DNA from: Promethearchaeota archaeon
Lineage (GTDB): Archaea > Asgardarchaeota > Lokiarchaeia > Sigyniarchaeales > SOKP01
Length of the DNA: 64,000 nt
Assembly: GCA_016839705.1 (NCBI GenBank)
Contig: JAEOTR010000025.1
Location: 18,416-82,415 of the forward strand
Direction: 5' to 3'
Shown here: positions 35,704 to 42,758 of the stretch, in pieces
How positions within the stretch are numbered: the first letter of the stretch is position 1
How the letters are laid out: each line of letters begins with the position of its first letter
Notes under the pieces: model-generated
What the model was told of the DNA's origin: nothing
Databases searched by the model: none
The model's input: only the letters and a program-made list of their open reading frames with translations
Position numbers and translations under genes: made by a program

Positions 35704-36870
35704 TTATTTTAATACTTCTTCATTAAAAAAGCCAGGCTTAGGAGTTAAGCTGTTTAAAATTAGTTTATCGGCAGGAGTGGTTCTTTCCGTCACAATACGA
35801 GCAATTAATTCTCCTAAACCTGGACCTAACATAAAGCCTTGTCCACACATACCTACGGCATTAATATATCCGCTTACTTCTTCAACATTACCCACTATAG
35901 GATTTCCATCATGAGTCATTGGATATAATCCTCGCCATGTTCTCCTAATCTTAATATTCTTCAAGCGTGGTATAAGTTGAACCATCCTTTTTGTAATTTG
36001 AGGTAGAAATGTACTTGTTTCTCTGCGGTCAATTCCGGGAATAGTTGGATTAGGTGTCAAACAAAAAATAATTTTCCCTTCGTTATTTTGATAAAAATAG
36101 TAATTCTTTGAATTTCCAAATTTTTCATCCAAGCAAGGACTAATATCGACAACCATAGGGGAAAAGAACTTTTGAACAGGTTCAGTAATACCCGCTTCAT
36201 GAGATTCTGGTTCTACAGGTAGATCTAAACCGATTAAATTCCCAATATCTTTTGCTTGAGCTCCAGCAGCATTAATAACAATATTAGTTTTATATTTTGA
36301 CTTAGTTGTTTTTATGCCAACAATGCTTCTTTTTTTTAAATTAATATCAATAACTTCTTCATTAAAATGATATTTAGTACCTAATTGCTTTGACCGACGA
36401 TAGAATGAATGTAAAGATAGTAATGGAGAGGCATTCCCATCTTCAGGACTAAAAGTTCCTCCTACTAAACCTTCTTCGTTAATCCCTGGTATAAGTTCTT
36501 TAATTTTTTCAGTTTCGAGAAAATCGATATTCAATCCAAAACTCTTTTGGAGCTTAACTGTATCTTTAAGCATTTTTTTATCTTCATCTGAAAATGCTAA
36601 AAAAGTATATCCTCCTTGATTCCACCAAATATCGTCTCCATACTCTTCTTCCCATTTGGAGAAAATCTCGATTGATCGCTTGCATAATAATGCTTTACCT
36701 ATGTTAGAATGAGTAGCTCGAATACCACCTATTGCATGTTTATTATCTGCTTGAGCAACTGAAGGTAATGAATCGAGGACAAGTGTTCTAAGCCCATCAG
36801 TAGCCATCGCTAAAGCTATTGGAACACCAACACTACCCGCACCAATGATAATTACATCATATTCAACCAT
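35704..36870 (-). CDS. FAD-dependent amino-acid/amine oxidoreductase (proline dehydrogenase/sarcosine oxidase beta-like)
   Basis: IIGAGSVG, GGIRATH, VINAAGA, RRTWRGLYPMTHDGNP, GMCGQGFMLGP. Confidence 0.85.
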   Translation of the reverse strand: MVEYDVIIIGAGSVGVPIALAMATDGLRTLVLDSLPSVAQADNKHAIGGIRATHSNIGKALLCKRSIEIFSKWEEEYGDDIWWNQGGYTFLAFSDEDKKMLKDTVKLQKSFGLNIDFLETEKIKELIPGINEEGLVGGTFSPEDGNASPLLSLHSFYRRSKQLGTKYHFNEEVIDINLKKRSIVGIKTTKSKYKTNIVINAAGAQAKDIGNLIGLDLPVEPESHEAGITEPVQKFFSPMVVDISPCLDEKFGNSKNYYFYQNNEGKIIFCLTPNPTIPGIDRRETSTFLPQITKRMVQLIPRLKNIKIRRTWRGLYPMTHDGNPIVGNVEEVSGYINAVGMCGQGFMLGPGLGELIARIVTERTTPADKLILNSLTPKPGFFNEEVLK

Positions 36871-36872
36871 TG

Positions 36873-41322: not shown

Positions 41323-41414
41323 TTAATTACACCAAATCTAAAATAAAAATATTAAAAAATCATAGAGGCGGATTATAATAAAGATTAAATTACCTATAAT
41401 TTAAAAAAATATAG

Positions 41415-42758
41415 CTACTTTTTTAAGAATTTATTAATAAAATTATCAAGGACTTCTTCGATAGTAGGACTTCCAATTGATTCGATATCATACGATACTT
41501 TCACAATAGGCTTATTTATTTTGATTAATTTGGTTAAATCTATAGGACTTCCATTCAAGATAATATCTGCCTTCACATTATTAAGTGTTTTTTCTAAGTC
41601 GTCTATTTGTTCATCAGTGTATCCCATTGCAGGTACTATTTGTGTAATTTGAGGGAAATCTTCGTAGATTTCTTTCATAGATCCTACTAAAAATTTTCTT
41701 GGATCTACTATTTTTGCTTCTGCGTTTTTAGCAGCAACATATGCAGCTCCAATTGCCATGCCTCCATGAGTTAAAGTGGGTCCATCTTCTACAACTACAA
41801 CTTTCTTTCCCTTCAATCTTAAAGGATCTTCTGCTTTAACCACCGAGTTTGTATAAACTCTTATAGCATTTGGATTTAATTCATCGAGATTTTTTTCCAC
41901 AATTTTAACATCTTCTGGTTTCGCACTGTCCATCTTATTTATTACAAACACATCAGCATATTTAGCATTAACTTCACCTGGGTGATATTTCTTCTCATGT
42001 CCCGGTCTTAATGGATCAACGACTACGAAAAGTAAATCAGTAATATAGAAAGAAATCTCATTATTTCCCCCATCAAAAATAATTACATCTGCTTCTTTTT
42101 CAGCTTCCCTAATTATCTTCTCATAATCAACTCCCGAATAAATCACTAATCCCTGCCTAATGTAAGGTTCATATTCTTCCCGTTCTTCAATAGTGCAATC
42201 GTATTTATCTAGATCCTCATATTTTTCAAACCTCATAACATTTTGTTGAATTAAATCACCATAAGGCATTGGTTCACGAATAGCTACAACTTTGTATCCT
42301 TTACTCACTAAGTATCGATATGTAGCTCTAGAAACTTGACTTTTGCCACATCCAGTTCTTACCGCACAAATAGCAATTACCGGTTTATTAGCTTTAAGTT
42401 GAGTGAATCTCCCAGATATTAATCGATAATTAGCCCCTGCAGCAAGTGCTCTTGAAGCTTTATGCATTACCTCCTCATGAGACACATCTGAATAAGCAAA
42501 CACAACTTCATCGATTTTATGTTTTTTTATATATTCTTCTAAAAGATCTTCAGAAACCATTGGAATTCCATTTGGGTATACATTACCAGCTAGTTCTACG
42601 GGGAATTTTCTTTCGGTTTCTTCTGTTGTACCAACATTTTGTTCACCTGCTATAGTAAATGCAACAACCTCGTATTCTTCGTTATCTCTAAAAACAGTAT
42701 TGAAGACATGGAAATCGTAACCTAATGCACCTATGATAACAACTTTCTTTCTCTTCAT
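41415..42758 (-). CDS. arcE: Arginine synthetase ArcE-like P-loop protein (cyclic 2,3-diphosphoglycerate synthetase-like family)
   Basis: DFHVFN, FAYSDVSHEEVMH, AVRTGCGKSQ, PMPYGDL, CTIEEREEYEP, DGGNN, YHPGE, EDGPTLTHGGM, PAMGY match my recollection of Thermococcus ArcE; arcB, arcC and rocD nearby. Confidence 0.8.
   Translation of the reverse strand: MKRKKVVIIGALGYDFHVFNTVFRDNEEYEVVAFTIAGEQNVGTTEETERKFPVELAGNVYPNGIPMVSEDLLEEYIKKHKIDEVVFAYSDVSHEEVMHKASRALAAGANYRLISGRFTQLKANKPVIAICAVRTGCGKSQVSRATYRYLVSKGYKVVAIREPMPYGDLIQQNVMRFEKYEDLDKYDCTIEEREEYEPYIRQGLVIYSGVDYEKIIREAEKEADVIIFDGGNNEISFYITDLLFVVVDPLRPGHEKKYHPGEVNAKYADVFVINKMDSAKPEDVKIVEKNLDELNPNAIRVYTNSVVKAEDPLRLKGKKVVVVEDGPTLTHGGMAIGAAYVAAKNAEAKIVDPRKFLVGSMKEIYEDFPQITQIVPAMGYTDEQIDDLEKTLNNVKADIILNGSPIDLTKLIKINKPIVKVSYDIESIGSPTIEEVLDNFINKFLKK

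Follow-up and report, generated by a model that had tools for sequence, protein, structure and literature searches.

We analyzed a 64,000-nucleotide stretch (the window) of contig JAEOTR010000025.1 from a Promethearchaeota archaeon whose genome comprises 3.36 Mb and is 93% complete. The window carries a block of four consecutive minus-strand genes encoding an arcE-like protein, a large-subunit oxidoreductase of the tungsten family (WOR, also called aldehyde oxidoreductase, AOR), and the alpha and beta chains of a proline-dehydrogenase-like flavoprotein (Table 1). We propose, with a probability of about 60%, that this WOR is a glutamate-5-semialdehyde (GSA):ferredoxin oxidoreductase that would feed arginine, ornithine and proline into glutamate. 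That GSA is its substrate, whatever the direction of the reaction or the wiring of the electrons, appears highly probable from the sequence comparisons presented below. We consider the module to be real and conserved; its protein families are known, the assignment of GSA or pyrroline-5-carboxylate (P5C) to a WOR would be new, and the putative function is well supported by gene context.

The four genes are separated by 92, 184 and 2 nt, and their order and gap sizes as given in an earlier note on this DNA were borne out by the open reading frame (ORF) coordinates. The 184-nt gap is not plain intergenic DNA; it holds a thiC relic of 37 codons from the 3' end of the gene. Over these codons the amino-acid identity to the C-terminus of the 419-aa ThiC of genome G051 is 78%, and the gene is intact at that slot in G051 and G053 (intact copies between WOR and alpha at L168:4973-6232 and L169:4767-6038). 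In about five further genomes the WOR and alpha genes are 1.3-1.5 kb apart, which suggests a thiC gene in this slot as well; the second thiC-like gene of our genome lies on contig C42 (39% identity).

Linkage was examined in 138 genomes of the class (hereafter Loki genomes), of which 91 contained the WOR, 76 the fused alpha chain, and 70 both. The linkage between AOR and dehydrogenase anticipated in the earlier note is conserved: WOR lies directly upstream of alpha within 4.5 kb in 61 of the 70 two-gene genomes, with a gap below 52 nt in 46, and most relatives have a gap of 22-51 nt. WOR was present in 70/76 alpha genomes, and alpha in 6/47 WOR-negative genomes. The ornithine aminotransferase gene rocD was found in 78 genomes, 68 of them with WOR. 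In our genome, the genes for ornithine carbamoyltransferase (OTC), carbamate kinase and ornithine aminotransferase are located 1.4-6 kb downstream of the block. The rocD noted nearby passed TIGR01885; it is convergent with the block, a placement also seen in loci L005-L007, L090, L094, and L103. A DRG-type GTPase gene on the opposite strand cuts the block from OTC here, whereas in most relatives the stretch is continuous and OTC directly follows beta, with gaps of roughly 50-110 nt in about ten of them. The grouping recurs in dozens of genomes and is therefore not due to chance. Promoter and terminator scans of the block yielded matches at chance level only.

The WOR matched both PF02730 (AFOR_N) and PF01314 (AFOR_C) far above cut-off, and its predicted fold resembled FOR and AOR (Z about 36, rmsd 2.4-2.5; Z 31-36 against seven WOR structures). 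With FOR (1B25/1B4N, Z 36.1) and AOR (1AOR, Z 35.7) of Pyrococcus furiosus it shares the four cysteine ligands and the second-shell Thr/Glu/Tyr/His; it differs from both in being about 110 residues longer and only 27-28% identical, and in having CX3CX3C spacing and fixed charged residues of its own. The [4Fe-4S] cysteines C331/C335/C339/C550 together with E366, Y488, and H509 were kept in 161/161 clade members, and T280 in 155/161. T280, E366, Y488, and H509 are the counterparts of Thr243, Glu313, Tyr427, and His448 (PfAOR numbering), four residues named as second-shell or catalytic in WORs (PMC13328260). A charged set (K215, K491, E492, K505, D510, E511, D518, R541, K551, and D556) was fixed in the clade and not in ten paralogues; such a set would fit one specific charged (zwitterionic) substrate. 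The structural model was weak around the cluster and at residues 485-491, and pocket geometry was therefore not taken from it. A complex prediction of WOR with alpha residues 440-600 scored 0.00 and has no bearing either way.

Identity of the WOR was 76-85% to its closest relatives in Promethearchaeota and 54-85% across a wide, well-separated group, versus 22-29% to the roughly 12 AOR-family paralogues in its own genome. The closest relatives mark the host as an Asgard archaeon of Loki type. It is 57% identical to a Fervidicella protein (contig AZQP01000067) that is labelled clade 7 in a published dataset, and the joint group is 100%-supported. On these comparisons we place the WOR in clade 7 of the family, a placement anchored on this single sequence; other listed clade-7 members have the same operon. 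Clade 7 is without a characterised member and accounts for 19% of gut WORs once normalised for tungstate transporter (PMC13328260, which makes no mention of proline, P5C or ornithine). The genome contains a Tup/Wtp-like (tungstate) transporter that falls below NCBIfam cut-offs. Orthology to FOR was ruled out (28% identity to PfFOR, no closer than to AOR), although a FOR-like function may still hold. GAPOR (51 bits against a cut-off of 1300) and YdhV were likewise rejected on cut-offs.

The claim in the earlier note that this AOR oxidises GSA gained independent support from the context of clade-7 WORs outside the Loki genomes, where HypD, proC, proBA and two aminotransferase families occur as neighbours. 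The fused dehydrogenase adjoins the WOR in Desulfobacterota, and a split dehydrogenase with a beta chain only 30-36% identical does so in Clostridia. Aminotransferase genes are represented by rocD (L027 and L035) and, in eight Chloroflexota-type loci, by homologues of 7VNO, which we take to be the ornithine aminotransferase of Pyrococcus horikoshii. HypD was found over cut-off in L044 and as a homologue in L153, proC in eight loci, and proBA in L038 and L067; proline-racemase-family or cyclodeaminase-like genes are among further neighbours. The different neighbour sets fall on separate branches of the clade-7 tree. Cultured Clostridia in the published dataset have the same neighbours, and cultured operon hosts are Anaerosolibacter carboniphilus DSM 103526, Wukongibacter baidiensis, Geosporobacter subterraneus, and Paramaledivibacter caminithermalis. 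Because GSA/P5C is what these otherwise unrelated enzymes have in common, we take it to be the probable substrate of clade-7 WORs.

Non-Loki clade-7 loci of at least 10 kb were compared with 40 other WORs from the same genomes (18-kb flanks). A GSA/P5C marker gene at orthologue-level identity was present at 20/46 clade-7 loci versus 2/39 control WORs, a contrast that is strong but not clean, as the markers were picked after inspection of the loci and the genomes are related, both of which inflate the significance suggested by p values. At a loose threshold the figures were 23/46 versus 7/40, with control matches mostly at 30-36%. The taxon labels Caulobacteraceae (L040) and Calditrichales (L047) were given no weight as separate lineages, because the proteins concerned nest within Clostridia.

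Two further arrangements were observed. In three Syntrophomonadaceae loci (L070, L076, and L077), the clade-7 WOR and its WorS are flanked by a cyclodeaminase-like gene on one side and an amino-acid ABC transporter on the other, with a trans-3-hydroxy-L-proline dehydratase or racemase-family gene and a radical activase downstream. In two Chloroflexota genomes (L214 and L217), a 7VNO-like class III aminotransferase with 56-61% identity to the L031 protein adjoins a WOR from outside clade 7, which might represent a further omega-aminotransferase/WOR pair acting on a different semialdehyde.

The window had been noted to lack an NAD-dependent P5C dehydrogenase, and none was found in the 93% complete genome either: none of its three aldehyde dehydrogenases (ALDHs), of which one is MMSDH and two are unassigned, reached the cut-offs for RocA, PutA or P5C dehydrogenase (TIGR01236). 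Nor were a Pro_dh domain, proA, argC/lysY or argG found in the genome, absences that are subject to its 7% incompleteness; proC and glutamate-dehydrogenase-family genes are present. RocA was over cut-off in 0/138 class genomes and 0/38 others, and proA was missing from 49/49 genomes of the genus. Across the class, ProA, found in 29 genomes, and rocD/fused dehydrogenase largely exclude each other, with only 3 genomes in common, which suggests two alternative proline lifestyles in Promethearchaeia. HypD was over cut-off in 72/138 class genomes; our genome has about 13 AOR-family genes in all and, among its six or more glycyl-radical-enzyme genes, none that reaches the HypD cut-off.

The fusion of 2Fe-2S, FAD, ferredoxin and BFD modules described for the alpha chain agrees with its Pfam matches, Fer2_4 (residues 16-94), Pyr_redox_2 (118-377), and Fer2_BFD (607-659). 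The Fer4_7 match (461-504) is weak and below cut-off, and is backed by eight invariant cysteines. All Cys sets were invariant across 23 homologues, giving four Fe-S sites. Alpha matches sarcosine oxidase alpha and PH1363, and in Clostridia loci its modules are three or four separate genes. Its second GxGxxG motif is followed by a strand that ends in an acidic residue, as in the NAD type, so that proline-derived electrons probably go elsewhere than to the low-potential step of the WOR. The single low-potential step that the earlier note envisaged for arginine, ornithine and proline would thus hold for the WOR reaction and not for the electrons of proline oxidation itself. With a mean pLDDT of 62.6, the AlphaFold model of this chain was of low quality, and we set aside its fold matches, among them weak ones to Nfn/Stn bifurcating enzymes.

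The best PDB match of beta was 1Y56_B, the P. horikoshii proline dehydrogenase (E 8e-57), and the family profile favoured 1Y56_B over sarcosine oxidase beta by more than 50 orders of magnitude (5e-107 vs 2e-54). Residues R51, H224, and Y258 and the Arg-X-Trp motif R310/W312 are invariant, though not unique to proline-specific members. We annotate beta as the putative catalytic subunit of an L-proline dehydrogenase. Heterotetrameric sarcosine oxidase, with its hallmarks of an approximately 1000-aa alpha chain with a folate-binding region and soxA/soxB models over cut-off, was rejected (soxA 155 vs 1164 bits, soxB 97 vs 529 bits), and glycerol-3-phosphate dehydrogenase was ruled out on cut-offs. 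The other DAO/alpha pair of the genome, on contig C62, is glycerol-3-phosphate-oxidase-like. The closest known counterparts of the complex are the heteromeric dye-linked L-proline dehydrogenases of Thermococcales (PH1363/PH1364, 1Y56, with the closest solved relative of beta; pdhABFX of T. profundus), whose alpha chain has N-terminal 2Fe-2S, FAD and C-terminal four-Cys modules, as in the Loki protein. The Loki complex differs in that the ferredoxin and BFD modules are fused in one 694-aa chain, which reduces a four-subunit arrangement to two genes, and in standing beside a WOR.

For the arcE product the sole PDB match was a distant cyclic 2,3-diphosphoglycerate synthetase (cDPGS; E 5e-5), its homologues are annotated as 'GTPase' or cDPGS, and no arginine deiminase was found in the genome. 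ArcE, which converts arginine, ADP and Pi to citrulline, NH3 and ATP, has been reported in Lokiarchaeota (PMC11032458). The weak cDPGS likeness, the GTPase naming, the nearby arcB and arcC genes and the missing deiminase match that published description, and we annotate the gene product as a putative ArcE. A second carbamate kinase is encoded on contig C97 (65% identity).

Taken together, the block would form a catabolic module through which an anaerobic amino-acid fermenter degrades arginine, ornithine and proline. Judged by homology and context, ArcE, OTC and carbamate kinase would convert arginine to ornithine with a yield of 2 ATP, a route and ATP gain established in Thermococcus (PMC11032458). 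RocD would convert ornithine to GSA, and the alpha/beta flavoprotein proline to P5C, which presumably equilibrates with GSA. At the tungsto-pterin site of the clade-7 WOR, GSA would be oxidised to glutamate, as gene context suggests, and the electrons would pass via the [4Fe-4S] cluster to a ferredoxin-type carrier, the expected acceptor under the rules of the family. The WOR would thereby do the job of an NAD-dependent P5C dehydrogenase while keeping the electrons at low potential. Glutamate could then enter ordinary fermentation, and ProC, encoded elsewhere in the genome, would let the same GSA pool supply proline. T. kodakarensis has a comparable set (ArcE-ArcB-ArcC, OrnAT, and ProC) with the same ATP gain, no deiminase and ornithine conversion to GSA (PMC11032458); its GSA is described as going to proline, whereas WOR and proline dehydrogenase in the Loki block suggest an oxidative exit to glutamate. 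PutA/RocA (PruA) catalyze the step proposed here, GSA to glutamate after proline dehydrogenase and ornithine aminotransferase, with an unrelated ALDH fold and NAD as acceptor. Precedents for a WOR that replaces an NAD-dependent aldehyde dehydrogenase in core catabolism with ferredoxin as acceptor are GAPOR (clade 23) and the GOR of C. bescii (clade 20), which differ in acting on glyceraldehyde-3-phosphate (PMC13328260).

Besides the way the markers were chosen, several observations weigh against this assignment. About half of the clade-7 loci are without any marker, and two control WORs adjoin a 7VNO-like aminotransferase. Neither rocD nor fused alpha was found in 18/91 WOR-positive Loki genomes, 17 of which have ProA, and the five of these 18 that were checked also lack the other aminotransferase and a beta orthologue; retention of the WOR in such genomes leaves room for a broader substrate range. 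Conversely, rocD or alpha occurs without a detected WOR in 13 genomes (fragmented assemblies). In 3 Loki and 6/38 other genomes, a clade-7 WOR is accompanied by a TIGR01236-type NAD P5C dehydrogenase; Anaerosolibacter and Wukongibacter, which carry the operon, are among the latter. The worS gene of class II WORs (WorL + WorS) is absent from this locus and from 28/28 fused-alpha loci; WorS is present in 14/14 split-type loci, and in Clostridia and many Chloroflexota members. Finally, enzymes closely related to proline dehydrogenase beta can favour a different substrate such as octopine, and a related subfamily does not act on proline (PMC4575208). We rejected a strict replacement of P5C dehydrogenase by the WOR because of the co-occurrence in nine clade-7 genomes, and discarded as uninformative the argument that every WOR genome has a GSA source (90/91), because such a source is needed by nearly all cells.

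Some of these points would also fit a FOR-like enzyme of broader scope, taken up into amino-acid clusters as an oxidoreductase for omega-semialdehydes (glutarate, succinate or 2-aminoadipate semialdehyde) or for aldehydes in general, or serving in detoxification, and/or a flavoprotein acting on another amine. FOR ties for the best fold match and shares the HxEAW motif, P5C dehydrogenase co-occurs as described, and the WOR persists in lineages that have no catabolic source of GSA, in one case within a tungsten-cofactor gene cluster: the G041 orthologue (L247, C15:440-10877) lies among Tup-like, moaC, moaA, moaE, moeA, and moaB genes in a lineage without rocD or dehydrogenase. The earlier note knew of no description of the proposed route; in our literature search, which covered few subscription journals, no paper assigned P5C or GSA to a WOR, but the idea is not wholly new, as P. 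furiosus FOR has been proposed to oxidise glutaric semialdehyde, not GSA (PMC12096430). We nevertheless hold a broad activity to be unlikely: the neighbours converge on proline, ornithine and hydroxyproline enzymes to a far greater extent than around control WORs, the genome has some 12 further AOR-family genes available for general aldehydes, and the clade-fixed putative pocket residues suggest a narrow substrate.

Quite unlikely, in our assessment, is that the WOR works mainly in reverse, reducing glutamate to GSA with electrons from reduced ferredoxin and no ATP, while cyclisation and ProC or RocD draw off the product. It would then stand in for ProBA/ArgBCD, and even arginine synthesis would be conceivable together with OTC, carbamate kinase and ArcE. 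Reversibility of AORs is known from acetogens, and our genome has proC while proA, argC/lysY and argG were not found; the WOR also adjoins proC in Bathyarchaeia-type and Desulfobacterota loci, and G139, G140, and G162 are without proA. However, ProA in 20 WOR-positive Loki genomes and proBA beside the WOR in L038 and L067 make a reductive role redundant there, and HypD and the dehydrogenase produce P5C and do not consume it. The lysine fermentation genes adjoining the block point to catabolism.

Electrical coupling, in which low-potential GSA electrons enter the alpha Fe-S modules and help the uphill oxidation of proline with NAD+ (net Pro + 2 NAD+ -> Glu + 2 NADH, with little free ferredoxin reduced), is likewise quite unlikely: it would suit the very tight spacing of the WOR and alpha genes, the NAD-type motif and four Fe-S sites of alpha, the WorS pattern (0/28 vs 14/14) and the approximate potentials (about -0.12 V for proline/P5C, about -0.58 V for aldehyde/acid and -0.32 V for NAD; sum near neutral), but the two genes lie apart in several genomes, three of which consist of a single contig (G011, G014, and G017), the WorS pattern is drawn from two or three lineages, Bathyarchaeia-type loci are without both WorS and dehydrogenase, and we know of no confurcation in this flavoprotein family.

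Table 1. Features of the window around the putative GSA oxidation block.
Feature	Coordinates	Strand	Remarks
Lysine fermentation cluster	19873-29331	+	directly upstream of rocD
Ornithine aminotransferase (rocD)	29460..30722	+	TIGR01885 527 bits vs cut-off 378
Carbamate kinase (arcC)	30764..31675	-	TIGR00746 over cut-off
Membrane transporter gene, split	31962-33266	-	175- and 230-aa ORFs, same frame
Ornithine carbamoyltransferase (OTC, arcB)	33357..34289	-	TIGR00658 over cut-off
DRG-type GTPase	34472-35620	+	between beta and OTC
Beta chain, DAO-family flavoprotein, putative L-proline dehydrogenase catalytic subunit	35704..36870	-	388 aa
Alpha chain, proline-dehydrogenase-like complex	36873..38957	-	694 aa; 2Fe-2S, FAD/NAD(H) Rossmann pair, 2[4Fe-4S], BFD-like 2Fe-2S fused
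thiC relic, 3' end, in WOR-alpha gap	39019..39129	-	homology to intact ThiC
WOR/AOR large subunit, clade 7, candidate glutamate-5-semialdehyde oxidoreductase	39142..41322	-	726 aa, TTG start
arcE-like gene, putative arginine synthetase	41415..42758	-	447 aa
739-aa protein	44491-46710	-	weak PKD match only; GC above surroundings

The lysine cluster comprises genes for a CoA transferase, kce, kdd, lysine 2,3-aminomutase (kamA-like), kamB, and lysine 5,6-aminomutase alpha/beta (kamD/E). The split transporter sits between OTC and carbamate kinase, and intact 443-453-aa paralogues (33% identity) are encoded on contigs C39, C11, and C87.

If GSA is indeed the substrate of this WOR, the finding would fill the P5C-to-glutamate step in anaerobes without RocA/PutA and would provide an oxidative outlet for HypD and for dye-linked proline dehydrogenase. 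It would also give the amino-acid fermentation of Asgard archaea one more ferredoxin-yielding reaction, a point of relevance to hydrogen-producing syntrophy. A wider generalisation, which we regard as rather doubtful, is that clade-7 WORs are dedicated and widespread GSA:ferredoxin oxidoreductases whose electrons pull proline oxidation with NAD+ through the Fe-S flavoprotein in quinone-less anaerobes, or which run in reverse from glutamate to proline, ornithine and arginine precursors without ATP. Should either the coupled or the reverse reading be true, it would represent an undescribed energy-coupling step in the amino-acid metabolism of Asgard archaea and gut anaerobes. A named substrate renders the uncharacterised clade 7 directly testable.

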